Virus record (IMG/VR): IMGVR_UViG_2619619132_000009
Strand: one strand, 5' to 3'
Source: a virus
Lineage: Duplodnaviria > Heunggongvirae > Uroviricota > Caudoviricetes
DNA length: 9,826 nt
The position numbers were made by a program, and so were the translations under genes. This document shows, in pieces, positions 1 to 6,421 of this stretch (position 1 is its first letter; each line of letters starts with the position of its first letter). A model generated the notes under the pieces. The model was not told the DNA's origin. It was given only the letters and a program-made list of their open reading frames with translations, and made no database searches.

Positions 1-124
1 TCGGTTTACGGGAAACGGTAAACAGGGCGGCGAATGCCCTGCCATCGGACGGCACCGCCGTTGCCGCGAACAGGCTGGCAAATGCCCACACAATTAATGG
101 TGTTCCCTTTGACGGGACGCAGGA
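1..124. repeat. Left copy of the inverted repeat flanking the invertible tail-fibre segment; may extend upstream of the window
   Basis: Positions 1-124 are the exact reverse complement of 1196-1319 (checked base by base; identity breaks at 125/1195). Confidence 0.9.
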
Positions 125-353
125 TATCACTATCTCATCAGGAACAGTAACCGCCATAAGACTGGGGTCGGTGACCGCACATATGCCCGGAACATGGGAA
201 AGCTGGGATCTGAATCTGGGGGGCGGCAATGTTCTTACCGGAATTAAAGTACAGGATGTCGGTAAGAATACGGCAGATAACGTCGGCGGCGTGTATTACC
301 GGCCGTTGCAGTATCTGTTAAATGGAGCATGGGTGACGGCTGCAAGTATATAA
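1..353 (+). CDS. Phage tail-fibre protein, C-terminal portion (5' end lies upstream of the window); currently expressed tip Sv
   Basis: Open frame from position 3 to TAA at 351-353 with no stop (GLRETVNRAANALPSDGTAVAANRLANAHTINGVPFDGTQDITISSG...YYRPLQYLLNGAWVTAASI). Motifs are typical of side tail-fibre C-termini. A Tfa gene and an invertase gene lie adjacent. Confidence 0.8.
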   Translation, partial: GLRETVNRAANALPSDGTAVAANRLANAHTINGVPFDGTQDITISSGTVTAIRLGSVTAHMPGTWESWDLNLGGGNVLTGIKVQDVGKNTADNVGGVYYRPLQYLLNGAWVTAASI

Positions 354-361
354 TGATATTC

Positions 362-387
362 AGAAGGCCTTCCGGCCTTCTTTATTA
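362..387 (+). terminator. Stem-loop between the convergent tail-fibre tip and tfa genes, probable intrinsic terminator
   Basis: Perfect 8-bp stem AGAAGGCC/GGCCTTCT with a TTCC loop (362-381), followed by TTATTA. It lies between the Sv stop (353) and the tfa stop (385). Confidence 0.45.
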
Positions 388-906
388 CTGTGGCTGCTCA
401 GGCCATTTAATGGCGTTAAATTCAGCTTCTGTTTTAATGGCGGGTAGTTCCATTTTCTTCACCTGACTGATGTATGCCATCCATTGGGTAAGTGCTGCTC
501 TGTCTTCATCGCTGATGGTGCCCAGTTGTAGCTCCGTTCTCCAGTCATTAATTTTTTCATATGCCTGATTAAGATATGACTGGCGCATTGCTTCCAGTTT
601 TCTTGCGTAGTTAACCGGAATACGGGAGATTATGCCATTATCAAACTTCCAGTTTCCTGAAATATCCGTGCCTTCAGGGAGTTCATCGACCTCAACCACA
701 GAAAACCCCGCAGGATACAGCGCCGAGGCGTCCTGTGATATTGAGCAGATAACGCCGCTGTCAGGTGTTATGCAAAGTTTATATTTTTTGGTGAATAATG
801 GCAGGGATTCGTAGAAATCCTTACCATCTTCACTCTGGAAATACTGAACATTATTACCATATGGCATATTTTCAGGATAATAACGGGTTATATTTTTTAG
901 TTCCAT
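385..906 (-). CDS. tfa: Tail-fibre assembly chaperone (Tfa family)
   Basis: 173-aa ORF with a strong RBS (AGGAGG, 5-nt spacer, ATG). The C-terminal region (...DRAALTQWMAYISQVKKMELPAIKTEAEFNAIKWPEQP) resembles the conserved Tfa C-terminal domain. It sits directly downstream of the minus-strand fibre tip. Confidence 0.8.
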   Translation of the reverse strand: MELKNITRYYPENMPYGNNVQYFQSEDGKDFYESLPLFTKKYKLCITPDSGVICSISQDASALYPAGFSVVEVDELPEGTDISGNWKFDNGIISRIPVNYARKLEAMRQSYLNQAYEKINDWRTELQLGTISDEDRAALTQWMAYISQVKKMELPAIKTEAEFNAIKWPEQPQ

Positions 907-957
907 AAAATCCTCCTGGAAATAAATCTGTTTTAAAATATATTATTTACTGACTAT

Positions 958-1319
958 TTATAACTGAGATACCGTAATCCATGTACCTCCGACTAATTTT
1001 TGCAGGGGTCTGAATGCTATAAAATCGTTTGAAGCATCAACTTTACTGTCAATCTGCAGGCCTGCCATAACATTACCGTACGCAGAGTAATATGCCCCAC
1101 CGTACATTACCTGCCTGTTCTCTGCTCCCAGCCTGATATCCTGGATATATCGGGAATCCGCATCCTGCTGTGTTATACCAGAAGTGATGTTTATGTCCTG
1201 CGTCCCGTCAAAGGGAACACCATTAATTGTGTGGGCATTTGCCAGCCTGTTCGCGGCAACGGCGGTGCCGTCCGATGGCAGGGCATTCGCCGCCCTGTTT
1301 ACCGTTTCCCGTAAACCGA
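958..1319 (-). CDS. Alternative tail-fibre C-terminal cassette (Sv'), without its own start in this orientation
   Basis: Hand translation of the minus strand continues in frame from the right inverted repeat to a TAA at 958-960 (...GTQDINITSGITQQDADSRYIQDIRLGAENRQVMYGGAYYSAYGNVMAGLQIDSKVDASNDFIAFRPLQKLVGGTWITVSQL). It ends in the same RPLQxLxxGxWxT motif as the plus-strand tip and has no in-frame start codon. Confidence 0.6.
1196..1319. repeat. Right copy of the inverted repeat of the invertible tail-fibre segment
   Basis: Exact reverse complement of 1-124. Confidence 0.9.
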
Positions 1320-1331
1320 GGTTTTCAGGAA
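1306..1331. other. Putative gix/hix-like crossover site for the serine invertase (12-2-12 dyad)
   Basis: TTCCCGTAAACC-GA-GGTTTTCAGGAA: two imperfect 12-bp inverted half-sites (10/12 match) around a central GA. It resembles the recalled Mu gix site (TTCCTGTAAACCGAGGTTTTGGATAA) and sits at the outer edge of the right repeat, 65 bp before the invertase start. The left partner would be centred on window position 1. Confidence 0.5.
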
Positions 1332-1396
1332 AGCCAGGATTAACTCTGTTTTATTCCTCATGCGACAATTCCGGCTTTTTATAATAAGGAAATCGT

Positions 1397-1969
1397 ATGC
1401 TGATTGGGTATATCAGGGTGTCAACAAATGACCAGAATACGGCGCTACAAAGAAATGCGCTGGAATGTGCAGGATGTGAGCTGTTTTTCGAAGACAGAAT
1501 AAGCGGTAAGACAAGGGAGCGTCCCGGACTTAAACGCGCATTAAAGCGACTCCGGCCAGGGGATACCCTGCTGGTCTGGAAACTGGATCGCCTTGGACGC
1601 AGTATGCAGCACCTTGTCCTTTTAACAGAAGAACTCCGGCAACGCGGCGTTAACTTCCGCAGCATTACGGACAATATTGATACATCCACTCCCATGGGAC
1701 GTTTCTTTTTCCATATAATGGGCGCGCTGGCGGAAATGGAGCGGGAACTCATTATTGAACGTACACGCGCGGGTCTTGCTGCTGCCCGTGCTCAGGGGCG
1801 TCATGGCGGCAGACCTCAGAAACTGACAGAGAAAGAGCGGGAGCAAATCGCCCGTTTGCTGGCTAATGGCGAGTCCCGTAAACAAATCGCACTGATATTT
1901 GATATTGGCCTTTCCACCCTTTATCGTTATTTTCCTGCCTCACCAGCTCCGTCACCAAAAGTACCGTGA
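1397..1969 (+). CDS. pin: Serine DNA invertase of the Gin/Pin/Hin family
   Basis: 190 aa, MLIGYIRVSTNDQNTALQRNALECAGCE...VWKLDRLGRSMQHL...MGRFFFHIMGALAEMERELIIERTRAGL... Near-collinear with Mu Gin and e14 Pin as recalled, with the catalytic Ser in the RVST motif and a C-terminal HTH. Preceded by RBS AAGGA. Confidence 0.9.
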   Translation: MLIGYIRVSTNDQNTALQRNALECAGCELFFEDRISGKTRERPGLKRALKRLRPGDTLLVWKLDRLGRSMQHLVLLTEELRQRGVNFRSITDNIDTSTPMGRFFFHIMGALAEMERELIIERTRAGLAAARAQGRHGGRPQKLTEKEREQIARLLANGESRKQIALIFDIGLSTLYRYFPASPAPSPKVP

Positions 1970-2054: not shown

Positions 2055-4109
2055 ATGTCAGACTCCAAGTGGAAAATGCTCTCCGCCATGCCCGGAGAGT
2101 TTTCAGTCAAGGTTGCCGGTGGCACGGTGGCATTTATTGAAAGCCCTTTCCGCCCTTCGGGTAATAAAGGGGGGATCACCTTCGCAGACTGCGTGATCCG
2201 CTTCAGCACGAAAGAGCCATTATGGGTAATGCCGGTATCCGGTAATCCCAGTGCAGAAATCACCAGTTCAGGCGTGACTGGCATCATTCCAATCACATCT
2301 GACGTGGCCGGAACGCTCACGCCCTCCGACTGGAATGCACCGGATAACGCCGGGCCTTCCGGTAGCACGAATGGCAGCAGTTCAGAGCCGGAATATTACT
2401 TTGTTGTCATTCTCGCGGGTCAGTCAAATGGCATGGCCTACGGCGAGGGGCTGCCGTTACCGGATTCGTTTGACCGCCCGGACCCACGCATTAAGCAACT
2501 GGCACGCCGCAGTACGGTAACGCCCAACGGTACGTCGTGTACATACAACGACATCATTCCGGCAGACCACTGCCTGCATGATGTTCAGGATATGAGCGGG
2601 ATAAACCACCCGAAAGCTGATCTGGCAAAAGGCCAGTACGGGACTGTCGGTCAGGGGTTGCATATTGCCAAAAAACTGCTTCCCTATATCCCACAGAATG
2701 CCGGGATACTTCTGGTGCCCTGTTGTCGTGGCGGGTCAGCATTCACCACTGGAGCCGACGGCTCATTCAGTGAGGCCAGCGGTGCTTCCGCTGATTCTTC
2801 ACGCTGGGGGGCCGGTAAACCTCTGTATCAGGACCTGGTAAGCCGCACCAAAGTCGCGCTGGCGAAAAACCCGAAAAACAAACTTCTGGCTGTGGTCTGG
2901 ATGCAGGGAGAGGCAGACCTTGCCTCAGGAAGCCAGCAGCATAATAGTTTATTCACGGCCATGGTTCAGCAGTTCAGAACTGACCTGGCTCCGCTTGCTG
3001 CGCAGTGCGTGAGTGGAAATGCCACCACGGTGCCGTGGATTTGCGGTGATACCACGTATTACTGGAAAAACGCTGGCACCGATAAATATGAGGCAGTATA
3101 CGGTGGCTACAAAGGCAAGGAAGCACAGAAAATTTTCTTTGTACCGTTCCTGACGGATGAGAATGGACAGAGCACGCCAACGAATGCTCCGGCGGAAGAC
3201 CCGGATATTGTGGCTGTCGGGTATTACGGTGCAGCATCCCGAACCCAGGGCAGTTTTGTTTCGACACAGCGTGACAGCCATTTCAGCTCATGGGCACGCA
3301 GGGGCGTCATTTCAGACCGTCTGGCCTCAGCTATTATGCTCCATGCAGGGCGCACGGCTGAACTGATGCGCGGGCAGACCGTGACACCACCGGATGAGAA
3401 GCCGTCACCTGATACACCATCAAAACCGTCCACGCCACCCGCAGACACCACGACGATGAGTACGCTATTTGCTTACCGGGCATCTGAGTCTGAAGGACGG
3501 TTGACACCACAGGGTTGGGCTGCCGGAGGTGGCAAGGCTCAAATCGTGGATGATGCCGGAGCCAGCGGGGGTAAGGCAATGAAACTGACCAAGGAAACAG
3601 GAAGAGCCCCCTGGTACCTTGAGCATGATGCTGGTAATGGTGCGGACCTGCTGGGTAAAGGTGGTCTTGTCAGTTGTCGTTTTAAACTCGATGGCGCGCT
3701 TACGGCTAATCAGTACGCACTGGCGCTGTACTGGCCGGTTTCTGCCCTGCCGCAAGGGGTTACTCTGGAAGGAAATGCCGGTCATAACCTGCTGGCATCG
3801 TTCTACGTACAGAGCGATGCCACAGACCTTAACGTGATGTATCACAAAGGAAACACGGCGCAGAACACGAAGCTGGGGTCATTCGGCGCATTTAATAACG
3901 AATGGCATACGCTGGGCTTCCGTTTTGCCGGTAACAACAGTATTGAGGTGACGCCGGTCATTGATGGTAAGGACGGGACACCATTCATGCTGTCGCAGTC
4001 TCCGGTCGGCACGTTTACGGCAGACAAGTTGCGCGTGACCGATATCACTAAAAATGCGACTTACCCGGTACTGATTGACAGTATCGTGGTGGAAGTGAAT
4101 AACGCGTAA
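2055..4109 (+). CDS. Prophage NanS-p-like sialate O-acetylesterase (SGNH/SASA esterase) with N-terminal extension and C-terminal lectin-like domain
   Basis: 684 aa. The core YYFVVILAGQSNGMAYGEGLPLPD...PRIKQLARRSTVTP...GILLVPCCRGGSAFT...VWMQGEAD resembles recalled E. coli NanS/YjhS and prophage NanS-p proteins. A P/T/S-rich linker (PPDEKPSPDTPSKPSTPPADTTT) is followed by about 230 aa that look like a beta-sandwich carbohydrate-binding domain. Confidence 0.6.
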   Translation: MSDSKWKMLSAMPGEFSVKVAGGTVAFIESPFRPSGNKGGITFADCVIRFSTKEPLWVMPVSGNPSAEITSSGVTGIIPITSDVAGTLTPSDWNAPDNAGPSGSTNGSSSEPEYYFVVILAGQSNGMAYGEGLPLPDSFDRPDPRIKQLARRSTVTPNGTSCTYNDIIPADHCLHDVQDMSGINHPKADLAKGQYGTVGQGLHIAKKLLPYIPQNAGILLVPCCRGGSAFTTGADGSFSEASGASADSSRWGAGKPLYQDLVSRTKVALAKNPKNKLLAVVWMQGEADLASGSQQHNSLFTAMVQQFRTDLAPLAAQCVSGNATTVPWICGDTTYYWKNAGTDKYEAVYGGYKGKEAQKIFFVPFLTDENGQSTPTNAPAEDPDIVAVGYYGAASRTQGSFVSTQRDSHFSSWARRGVISDRLASAIMLHAGRTAELMRGQTVTPPDEKPSPDTPSKPSTPPADTTTMSTLFAYRASESEGRLTPQGWAAGGGKAQIVDDAGASGGKAMKLTKETGRAPWYLEHDAGNGADLLGKGGLVSCRFKLDGALTANQYALALYWPVSALPQGVTLEGNAGHNLLASFYVQSDATDLNVMYHKGNTAQNTKLGSFGAFNNEWHTLGFRFAGNNSIEVTPVIDGKDGTPFMLSQSPVGTFTADKLRVTDITKNATYPVLIDSIVVEVNNA

Positions 4110-4995: not shown

Positions 4996-5050
4996 GGTAA
5001 TGCTGCCAACTTACTGATTTAGTGTATGATGGTGATTTTAAGGTGCTTGC

Positions 5051-5326
5051 GTGGCTTCCATTTCCATCAGATGTCCTTCCTGCTCCGCTACTGAAGGCGT
5101 GGTGCGTAACGGCAAAAGTACTGCCGGATATCAGCGCTATCTCTGCTCTCATTGCCGTAAAACATGGCAACTACAGTTCACTTACACCGCCTCTCAGCCC
5201 GGTAAGCACCAGAAAATCATTGATATGGCCATGAATGGCGTCGGATGTCGCGCCAGTGCACGCATTATGGGCGTTGGCCTCAACACGGTTTTACGTCACT
5301 TAAAAAACTCAGGCCGCAGTCGGTAA
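5051..5326 (+). CDS. insA: IS1 InsA (zinc-finger/HTH transposition regulator)
   Basis: [43 protein letters not shown]...[14 protein letters not shown], 91 aa, GTG start. Confidence 0.9.
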
Positions 5327-5748
5327 CCTCGCGCATACAACCGGGCAGTGATGTGATTGTCTGCGCTGAAATGGACGAACAGTGGGGCTACGTCGGTGCT
5401 AAATCACGTCAGCGCTGGCTGTTTTACGCGTATGACAGGATACGGAGGACGGTTGTGGCGCACGTCTTCGGTGAACGCACTCTGGCCACACTGGAGCGTC
5501 TTCTGAGCCTGCTGTCGGCCTTTGAGGTCGTGGTATAGATGACGGATGGCTGGCCGCTGTATGAATCACGCCTGAAGGGAAAGCTGCACGTTATCAGCAA
5601 GCGTTACACTCAGCGCATTGAGCGACATAATCTGAATCTGAGACAACATCTGGCAAGGCTGGGACGGAAGTCACTGTCGTTCTCAAAATCGGTGGAGCTG
5701 CATGACAAGGTCATCGGGCATTATCTGAACATAAAACACTATCAGTAA
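5245..5748 (+). pseudogene. insB: IS1 insB frame interrupted by an in-frame amber codon
   Basis: The InsB frame reads ...LSAFEVVV then TAG at 5536-5538, then [69 protein letters not shown] in the same frame. Canonical IS1 as recalled has ...VVIW MTDGW here, implying TGG to TAG. Confidence 0.7.
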
Positions 5749-5763
5749 GTTGGAGTCATTACC

Positions 5764-6154: not shown

Positions 6155-6177
6155 TCGATCGTTTTTGTCGATCGATT
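6155..6177. promoter_or_regulatory. Perfect palindrome ATCGATCG-N7-CGATCGAT carrying two Dam (GATC) sites, upstream of com-mom; candidate methylation-sensitive operator
   Basis: 8-bp perfect inverted repeat with a 7-bp T-rich spacer. GATC at 6157-6160 and 6170-6173, with a third GATC at 6088-6091, all within about 135 bp upstream of the com ATG in an AT-rich divergent intergenic region. Confidence 0.45.
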
Positions 6178-6220
6178 GAGTGATAAAGATATCAACAACA
6201 AAGCAGGAGGTTATGCGGCC

Positions 6221-6421
6221 ATGTATCGAAACATACGGTGCCGACATTGTAACAAGCTACTGGCACGAGCCAGCTTCAGTTATCTGGAAGTTAAATGTCC
6301 GCGCTGTAAAACCCTCAATCAAATCACATCTCAGAGCGCCACAGAGCACCCCACATACACAAGGAAATCCTGTCGTGGGGAACAGAAAGCAAGTTACATC
6401 CCGTATCATCAGCACGCCTGA
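6221..6421 (+). CDS. com: Com-like zinc-ribbon translational activator (phage Mu Com family)
   Basis: [35 protein letters not shown]... has Cys at 7, 10, 26 and 29 (CxxC-N15-CxxC) and strong resemblance to recalled Mu Com (MKSIRCKNCNKLL...IRCPRCK). RBS AGGAGG lies 10 nt upstream; the 3' end overlaps the next gene. Confidence 0.75.

Follow-up and report, generated by a model that had tools for sequence, protein, structure and literature searches.

Evidence for Gin-type inversion of a tail-fibre segment in a Mu-like prophage of Escherichia coli

Introduction

Do the first 1969 bp of this DNA make up a switch between alternative phage tail fibres, and, if so, why does the sequence open exactly at a crossover point and carry such long perfect repeats? 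The window analyzed here is the entire 9826-bp contig JHDL01000048.1 of a short-read draft assembly (GCA_000601335.1). An initial annotation, made from the window alone, described positions 1–1969 as a complete Gin/Pin-type switch of fibre tips. The type is supported by homology of the invertase to Gin, gix-like sites, a Mu-like gene order and the presence of both orientations in complete genomes. Part of the switch is missing from the window, as the contig stops at the centre of the left site. We conclude, with a probability of about 0.88, that a transposable, Mu-like prophage of E. coli carries here, at its right end, an invertible fibre segment with its invertase gene, and that the segment undergoes Gin-type inversion.

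Layout of the segment and the prophage

The features of the region are as follows.

1–14, plus strand: left crossover site, core TC followed by the inner half-site GGTTTACGGGAA; the outer half-site lies off the contig
1–142, plus strand: left repeat arm, 124 nt of it perfect, encoding the common start of the tips (GLRETVNRAANALPSDGTAVAANRLA to INGVPFDGTQDI)
3–353, plus strand: tip A, a fibre C-terminus of 116 aa in the assembled orientation (A); frame 3, open from the window start, stop codon at 351–353
362–381, no strand assigned: GC-rich, terminator-like hairpin AGAAGGCC TTCC GGCCTTCT, separating tip A from tfa, with which it converges
385–906, minus strand: Tfa (tail-fibre assembly), 173 aa; Pfam Caudo_TAP, E 4.8e-19; PHROG 136, E 4.7e-56
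958–1317, minus strand: tip B, an alternative fibre C-terminus of 119 aa, matching PHROGs 2901 and 1833
1178–1319, minus strand: right repeat arm, perfect over 1196–1319; arm positions 38–101 carry the tip A allele
1306–1331, plus strand: right crossover site TTCCCGTAAACC GA GGTTTTCAGGAA, aligning with Mu gixR TTCCTGTAAACC GA GGTTTTGGATAA
1397–1969, plus strand: Gin-family serine DNA invertase, 190 aa; Resolvase, E 1.6e-51; HTH_7, E 4.9e-15; PHROG 125 (DNA invertase), E 1.9e-94
1418–1481, plus strand: candidate recombinational enhancer with two G-N13-C 15-mers, GTGTCAACAAATGAC (1418–1432) and GTGCAGGATGTGAGC (1467–1481)

The invertible segment spans 1319 bp, with a gix-like 26-bp site at each end; the two sites are inverted relative to each other. 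The constant 5' part of the fibre gene, ∼176 codons common to both forms, lies outside it. Both this part and the outer left half-site are absent from the contig and were read from related complete genomes. There, the orientation A fibre is 293 aa long and matches PHROG 1833 (tail fibre) with an E-value of 6.7e-141; in the flipped genome of NCCP 13983 (orientation B), tip B is fused to the constant part in a 296-aa CDS. Tip B lacks its own start codon and is silent in orientation A. The frames of tips A (plus) and B (minus) bear out the view that two alternative tips sit on opposite strands. Their unique parts are strongly diverged in alignment, and that of tip A is 44–52% identical to the C-termini of the P1, SfMu and P2 fibres.

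Gene order in this region is that of the right end of Mu: baseplate, fibre, segment, gin, com, mom and prophage end. Upstream, related prophages have Mu-type head, tail and baseplate genes; downstream lie com and mom. The prophage ends at window position 7240, and the flanking DNA is different at each of 12 loci, as expected for a transposable phage. The family occurs in ∼4% of complete E. coli genomes, O157:H7 included. The copy studied here has an IS1 insertion at 4996–5763 and therefore may not make phage.

As had been predicted, the window opens on the core TC of the left crossover site. The cause is an assembly break rather than biology: the assembler halted at the edge of an exact repeat. 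Either an unresolved repeat alone or a culture of mixed orientation would give a contig break at this edge. A deletion or secondary-site rearrangement at the crossover centre was ruled out, since the window is a draft contig in its entirety and relatives run normally into the fibre gene.

The invertase and its sites

Over 184 aa the invertase shows 74% identity to Mu Gin, and it matches the Gin structures 4m6f and 3uj3 (E 2.5e-88). In its N-terminus, MLIGYIRVSTNDQ, Ser9 aligns with Ser9 of Gin. With this catalytic serine kept, the Resolvase and HTH_7 domains present and a full-length ORF, assignment to the Gin/Pin family holds. The sequence of helix B, PGLKRALKRL (KRALKRL motif), is the same in the invertase and Gin; basic residues of this helix (K47, R48 and K51 in Hin) contact the enhancer and are specific to DNA invertases (PMC3798978). 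The identical protein sequence was found in 5547 blocks of the assembly collection.

In 12 related loci, the full left site reads TTATCGATAACG TC GGTTTACGGGAA; Mu gixL is TTATCCAAAACC TC GGTTTACAGGAA. There are thus two 26-bp sites of 12-2-12 structure, inverted with respect to each other and with cores TC and GA, the left outer half being known from relatives only. They match Mu gix at 22–23 of 26 positions, in agreement with the annotation of an invertase gene following a gix/hix-like dyad. The 19-nt core of the right site has one match in the window, versus 0.01 expected by chance. Flipped relatives have exactly this right site and also exactly the left-site sequence that is present on the contig. 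The missing upstream half-site had been predicted as the reverse complement of 1320–1331. The real one matches that prediction at only 7 of 12 positions, but it is indeed gix-like, agreeing with the Mu outer half-site at 9 of 12.

Four invertase genes (the present one, its O157-type counterpart, Mu gin and e14 pinE) carry the two 15-mers unchanged and at equivalent places near the gene start. At conserved residues, codon identity among the four is 0.53–0.78 in the first 36 codons versus 0.48 overall. The spacing between the 15-mers is 49 bp, whereas that of the hin enhancer is 48 bp. The candidate lies ∼107 bp from the centre of the right site, and the hin enhancer lies ∼100 bp from a hix site (PMC3798978). 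Our first guess at the Fis sites, from a scan with GNNYRWWWWWYRNNC, placed them at nt 94–108 and 140–154 of the gene. It was dropped for nt 22–36 and 71–85, which are preferred because they are invariant in the four genes, fall in the stretch of raised codon identity and are ∼100 bp from the site; both pairs are putative. On these comparisons, 1418–1481 may be a Fis-bound recombinational enhancer.

Orientation of the segment in related genomes

Among complete genomes, ∼18 copies of this prophage type are in orientation A versus 5–6 in B, and three genomes carry two copies, one in each orientation. For the O157 type, 181 genomes have A and 23 have B. Twelve independent insertion sites were examined, and every one carries orientation A. 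Given the predominance of A, switching may be slow, or some copies may be locked; O157 strain PA20, for example, has a 1-nt deletion in the right site.

Genome pairs allow the exchange to be mapped. When the sequence of FORC_069 (A) is flipped in silico between the central dinucleotides, it is identical to that of NCCP 13983 (B) at 9336 of 9336 bases. The arms in these genomes differ from arm position 20 on, and the differences move with the segment. Similarly, an O157-type sequence whose arms are perfect over only 28 bp becomes, once flipped in silico, a 100% match to strain 2012C-4502. Because the arm differences travelled with the segment, exchange must have occurred within the first 19 (or 28) bp from the site centre, which points to site-specific recombination and not to RecA. 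At the level of the prophage family, then, the segment occurs in either orientation, and exchange takes place at the site core. Inversion probably takes place in the source strain as well.

Repeat arms and gene conversion

Comparison of the two stretches verified that positions 1–124 are the reverse complement of 1196–1319, with zero mismatches; over 142 nt, the identity is 95%. Beyond the site, the repeat is the homologous start of both tips. Its length relative to the Mu repeats had been taken as a trait of the switch. This does not hold: in most relatives the arms are perfect over only 19–37 bp, and these relatives nevertheless invert. At arm positions 38–101, 16 differences separate the two arms in 9 of 10 related loci. 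The converted allele of the right arm is also found in an independent complete chromosome, CP170329.1 (L002). By these alignments, a gene-conversion tract of 64–124 bp has carried tip A sequence over into tip B, perfecting the repeat to 124 bp in this lineage. The initial annotation had offered ongoing inversion or gene conversion as the source of the perfect identity. Gene conversion, in the form of a lineage-specific tract, is the part that survives, as site-specific inversion alone is unable to homogenize the arms.

Alternative explanations

Could the perfect repeat be an artefact, with diverged arms merged into a single consensus? The source contig does come from a short-read draft and stops at the repeat, and the arm differences in most related loci would fit such a collapse. 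Yet the identical converted right-arm allele recurs in a complete chromosome, on which ground collapse was dismissed; and, had the arms truly differed from position 38, the assembler would have had no reason to halt at position 1. We consider an artefact very improbable. A real repeat of this length raises the prospect that RecA-dependent homologous recombination makes the inversions and that the invertase is irrelevant. The 124 perfect bp of the window suffice for RecA, and with identical arms the products of the two pathways are indistinguishable. But exchange maps to the inner half-site beside the core rather than to longer identical stretches further in, and both orientations occur among relatives with only 19–37 perfect bp. 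RecA-mediated inversion across the long repeat was dismissed by this mapping, and we regard it as highly improbable.

The switch might instead be a locked fossil in a decaying prophage, intact in appearance but no longer inverting in the source strain. The IS1 insertion, the assembly of orientation A alone and the predominance of A in relatives can be read this way, as can deletion variants (strains M1, M3 and M18) that have lost tip B and the invertase, and frameshifted tail genes in several relatives. Against this, the invertase ORF is full length, with its exact protein widespread in the assembly collection; the site sequence on the contig is that of flipped relatives; and the contig break fits a mixed-orientation culture as well as an unresolved repeat. 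A fossil is thus unlikely, though it is the alternative to which we give most weight. A different role has been reported for PinQ and the P segment of e14, where inversion makes a chimeric fibre protein that blocks adsorption of T2 (PMC12529663). By this precedent, the switch would be an anti-phage device of the lysogen and would not serve phage host range. The prophage family, however, keeps the full Mu-type gene set for head, tail and baseplate, the segment is built like the G segment of Mu, and none of the data touch on defence. Of the explanations weighed here, this is the one we find hardest to credit.

A single tfa gene

The tfa gene is present in a sole copy between the tips, in line with tip B only and antisense to the fibre gene in orientation A. 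A tfa for each tip (the S-U, S'-U' pattern) was not found, and O157-type relatives likewise have a single copy. A sigma-70 scan of the minus strand recognized no promoter for tfa. It is possible, though doubtful, that the switch is asymmetric in a manner undescribed for Mu, P1 or e14, with a single tfa that stands behind the fibre gene only in orientation B. If so, either tip A would fold without a chaperone, or one Tfa would serve both tips via an orientation-independent promoter. The motif RPLQ is present in both tips of this prophage type, and RPVQ in both tips of the O157 type, a pattern that weakly hints at one Tfa serving both. Alternatively, inversion might toggle the tip together with the availability of a Tfa that remains fibre-bound and acts as an adhesin.

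Relation to known inversion systems

The closest known system is the Mu G segment with Gin (also in D108 and SfMu). The two share the gene order, from the baseplate genes gp47/gp48 to the right end, and a crossover within the fibre gene downstream of ∼170 constant codons. They differ in that the segment is 1.3 kb here and 3.0 kb in Mu, with one tfa instead of two (U and U') and with short tips of 116–119 aa. An esterase and two small genes also lie between gin and com here. The 34-bp repeat of Mu takes in both half-sites, whereas the outer half-sites here differ between the two sites; repeat identity therefore starts at the core dinucleotide.

O157-type loci (PA20, 2013C-4081) have the same arrangement of fibre, single antisense tfa, tip B, invertase and DUF6645 esterase, are ∼84% identical in DNA and also occur in both orientations in complete genomes. 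They differ in their tip and Tfa alleles, in segment length (1377 bp) and in arms that are perfect over only 28 bp. Mu-like prophages of O157 have been described (PMC7430833, PMC2669165), and the O157-type loci probably correspond to Sp18 of E. coli O157:H7 Sakai. A literature search on fibre inversion in Sp18 returned prophage papers, none of them on its switch.

The C segment of P1, inverted by Cin, resembles this locus: it, too, carries fibre sequence and inverts, and its crossover sites lie at the outer edges of inverted repeats that greatly exceed them in length. The P1 repeats are ∼0.6 kb, so long repeats are not new for the class. P1 differs in being a plasmid prophage with a larger segment and two tfa genes; its long repeats are constant, whereas here they reflect a conversion tract specific to one lineage. 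In e14, a serine invertase, PinE (with PinQ acting in trans), stands beside an invertible P segment of ∼1.8 kb with fibre tips. Both orientations are present in deposited genomes, the segment being inverted in 33% of 562 E. coli genomes (PMC12529663). Unlike the locus studied here, e14 is lambdoid and cryptic and has a pair of tfa genes, tfaE and tfaP; by alignment, PinE is further from this invertase than Gin is.

Discussion

We propose that the Gin homologue encoded beside the right site would bind both sites, assisted by host Fis bound to the candidate enhancer within the 5' end of the invertase gene. The invertase would cleave the TC/GA cores and turn the segment round. The fibre would end in tip A, with the hairpin next, in orientation A, and in tip B, with the single tfa next, in orientation B. 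Virions of the two forms would be expected to differ in receptor specificity, and hence in host range. The steps that involve Fis and the enhancer, and the difference in host range, are put forward as proposals.

The switch is real, and evidently active, but it belongs to a textbook class: it is homologous to the DNA inversion system that has been studied most, and it carries little weight for discovery. The single-Tfa layout poses a small question for phage assembly. The locus also explains why draft assemblies break at this point, and it cautions that orientation and fibre annotation differ between otherwise identical genomes such as FORC_069 and NCCP 13983. Finally, the prophage family provides a natural data set in which Gin-type crossover points and gene-conversion tracts can be read straight from genomes.

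Anatomy of the invertible segment

The initial annotation read the left end of the window as a Gin/Pin-type tail-fibre switch, and this interpretation is essentially right. Its claimed 124-bp perfect inverted repeat is real: nucleotides 1–124 are the reverse complement of 1196–1319 without a mismatch, and the match extends to 142 nt at 95%. The repeat encodes the first 42 residues of both fibre tips. Beyond these residues an alignment showed strong divergence between the tips, apart from a similar motif at the C-terminus (RPLQ.L..G.W.T). In orientation A, the one assembled here, the fibre ends in tip A; in the flipped orientation B it ends in tip B.

Features of the segment, the invertase gene and the prophage end
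3 (open from window start, frame 3) to stop 351–353, + strand: tip A, 116 aa
362–381: GC-rich hairpin between the tips
385–906, – strand: tail-fibre assembly gene (tfa) between the tips; Caudo_TAP E 4.8e-19, PHROG 136 E 4.7e-56
958–1317, – strand: tip B, 119 aa, without its own start codon
1306–1331: right crossover site, TTCCCGTAAACC GA GGTTTTCAGGAA
1397–1969: serine recombinase, 190 aa; Resolvase E 1.6e-51, HTH_7 E 4.9e-15
1418–1432 and 1467–1481: candidate enhancer 15-mers in the invertase gene
7240/7241: prophage right end, …GCGCTATA

The core of the right site occurs once in the window, against 0.01 occurrences expected by chance. All related loci have …TTATCGATAACG immediately before the base corresponding to position 1, giving a left site of TTATCGATAACG TC GGTTTACGGGAA, its outer half taken from those loci. 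The gix site of Mu reads TTATCCAAAACC TC GGTTTACAGGAA at either side. Judged by sequence, both predicted crossover sites here are close relatives of gix. The outer halves of the left and right sites (TTATCGATAACG versus TTCCTGAAAACC) are identical at 7/12 positions, and it is because they differ that repeat identity starts exactly at the core dinucleotide.

Invertase and candidate enhancer

Over 184 residues the invertase shares 74% identity with Mu Gin, and it matches Gin crystal structures at E 2.5e-88. Ser9 is present, and the helix-B motif KRALKRL is the same in both proteins. The basic residues of this motif have been described as specific to the invertase subclass and as contacts to the enhancer (PMC3798978).

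The invertase gene of the window was compared with those of the O157 type, Mu (gin) and e14 (pinE). Across these four genes, the share of conserved residues with identical codons was 0.53–0.78 in the first 36 codons and 0.2–0.5 beyond them (0.48 overall). Two G-N13-C 15-mers lie at the same positions (gene nt 22–36 and 71–85) in 4/4 genes. Their centres are 49 bp apart here; the corresponding spacing in hin is 48 bp. The candidate enhancer lies ∼107 bp from the centre of the right site; for the hin enhancer the distance to a hix site is ∼100 bp (PMC3798978). The gin coding region is known to contain Fis sites (PMC3378877). The conserved 15-mers and codon identity are thus consistent with an enhancer embedded in the invertase gene.

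Inversion in nature and position of the exchange

Orientation-specific query searches among complete genomes recovered both orientations. For the prophage type of the window, 18 copies were in A and 5–6 in B; for the O157 type, 181 genomes had A and 23 had B. Three genomes, DLI.5a (NZ_CP103972.1), TOE17 (NZ_CP069093.1) and AST46 (NZ_AP043639.1), each carry two Mu-like prophage copies, one per orientation, an arrangement that would permit invertase action in trans and recombination between copies.

The chromosomes of two matched E. coli strains, FORC_069 (A) and NCCP 13983 (B), are almost equal in length, and their loci are identical on either side of the segment. Unflipped, they differ by 819 mismatches; after an in-silico flip between the central dinucleotides, 9336/9336 bases match. 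Their arms (the inverted repeats, numbered from the crossover core) differ at positions 20, 23, 25, 38 and beyond, and all of these differences travelled with the segment. Exchange therefore took place within the first 19 bp. Similarly, flipping in silico at the cores turned an O157-type sequence, whose arms are perfect for just 28 bp, into one that matches strain 2012C-4502 at 100% over 2100 bp. Inversion might instead be attributed to RecA acting in longer identical stretches deeper in the arms, but both matched comparisons, including the exchange within 19 bp, argue against this. They are what site-specific exchange at the core would predict.

Some related loci carry altered segments. At the O157:H7 PA20 locus (L015, ∼3385–3420), by comparison with locus L016, the right site has lost 1 nt from the T run of its outer half, reading GGTTTCAGGGA in place of GGTTTTCAGGGA; the inner half also has a change. 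These changes might lock the segment, adding to the excess of A among O157 genomes. In E. coli M3 (L013, the stretch equivalent to 913–1902 of the window), and also in M1 and M18, tip B and most of the invertase are replaced by ∼145 bp of unrelated DNA. This variant keeps tip A and the antisense tfa and is a naturally locked A form.

Origin of the long perfect repeat and of the contig start

In 9/10 related loci, the right and left arms show 16 differences between positions 38 and 101, and the arms are perfect for only 19–37 bp. The tip A allele occupies stretch 38–101 in the window, as it does in the right arm of CP170329.1, and in the right arm it changes tip B from TPRN to NAHT. The O157-type outgroup has the TPRN form in both arms. 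From these alleles, the simplest account of the perfect repeat is one gene-conversion event, tip A into tip B, of 64–124 bp; other loci have further mosaic arm alleles. Of the two causes proposed earlier for the perfect identity, gene conversion thus holds up, whereas ongoing inversion does not explain it. Perfect identity over this length is a local oddity rather than a general feature of the system. Repeats of the P1 C segment are ∼0.6 kb, so length alone is no novelty in this class.

An entire contig of draft assembly GCA_000601335.1, JHDL01000048.1 (9826 bp), has the same sequence as the window from end to end. Identity between the arms begins at position 1, and the bases just to its left differ between the two copies; the assembler was therefore unable to extend past it. 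The window does begin at the crossover centre, as had been noted, but the cause is an assembly break at the repeat edge. Sister assemblies break elsewhere, at an IS1 element further right. Segment and invertase belong to a textbook class in a widespread prophage family, and contig start and perfect repeat have ordinary explanations.

Prophage context

Context was read from complete E. coli chromosomes matching 1–2050 at 99.0–99.4%. The upstream genes are those for a Mu-type head protein, tail sheath, tube, tape measure, baseplate (gp45 to gp48) and, last, a fibre of 293 aa; beyond the segment and invertase follow an SASA/DUF6645 esterase, DUF1378, DUF826, com and mom. Gene order at the right end is the same as in phage Mu. 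Beyond the prophage end the DNA is different in each of 12 loci, as expected of a transposable phage. Here the end abuts the interior of an Ag43/AIDA-type autotransporter gene (7242–9200), so insertion of the prophage truncated an adhesin gene. Further right are DUF905 and related island genes. Relatives occur in 236/5426 complete E. coli genomes, including an 84%-identical type of the same architecture in O157:H7 strains. A Mu-like prophage of O157 Sakai has been published as Sp18 (PMC7430833, PMC2669165), and we infer that the O157-type loci are Sp18.

The esterase gene (2055–4109, + strand, 684 aa), between invertase and com/mom, shares ∼70% DNA identity with genes from Stx-converting phages, some of which carry the annotation 9-O-acetyl-N-acetylneuraminic acid deacetylase. 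It looks like cargo in a Mu-like prophage. Between the DUF826 gene and com, an IS1 (4996–5763; 768 bp with 23-bp terminal repeats) interrupts a small hypothetical gene on the minus strand, which relatives carry uninterrupted. The insB frame of the IS1 has an in-frame stop here (97 + 69 aa) and is intact (167 aa) in a sister assembly. The com/mom module is present at 6176–7112 (Mom Pfam E 1.6e-77); the annotation of some relatives fuses com and mom into one 299-aa product or flags com as frameshifted.

A single tfa gene alongside two tips

In Mu and e14 each tip has its own tfa gene, whereas members of this prophage family have a single one. Only tip B has this gene in line behind it; in orientation A the gene runs antisense to the fibre gene. 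All independent insertion sites examined (12/12) were in orientation A, which, if the case of Mu G(+) is a guide, suggests that it is virions of the A type that lysogenise E. coli. In its unique part, tip A shows 44–52% identity to the fibre tips of P1, SfMu and P2; fibres of this kind come with an in-line Tfa. A sigma-70 scan of the minus strand gave no promoter for tfa. Between tip B and tfa lies an AT-rich non-coding spacer (907–957, – strand) of 51 nt, 80 nt in L016, whereas S and U of Mu are just 2 nt apart; a control element for tfa could lie in this spacer. Of the leads here, only the asymmetry of the single Tfa deserves an experiment, and it concerns how tip A is assembled.
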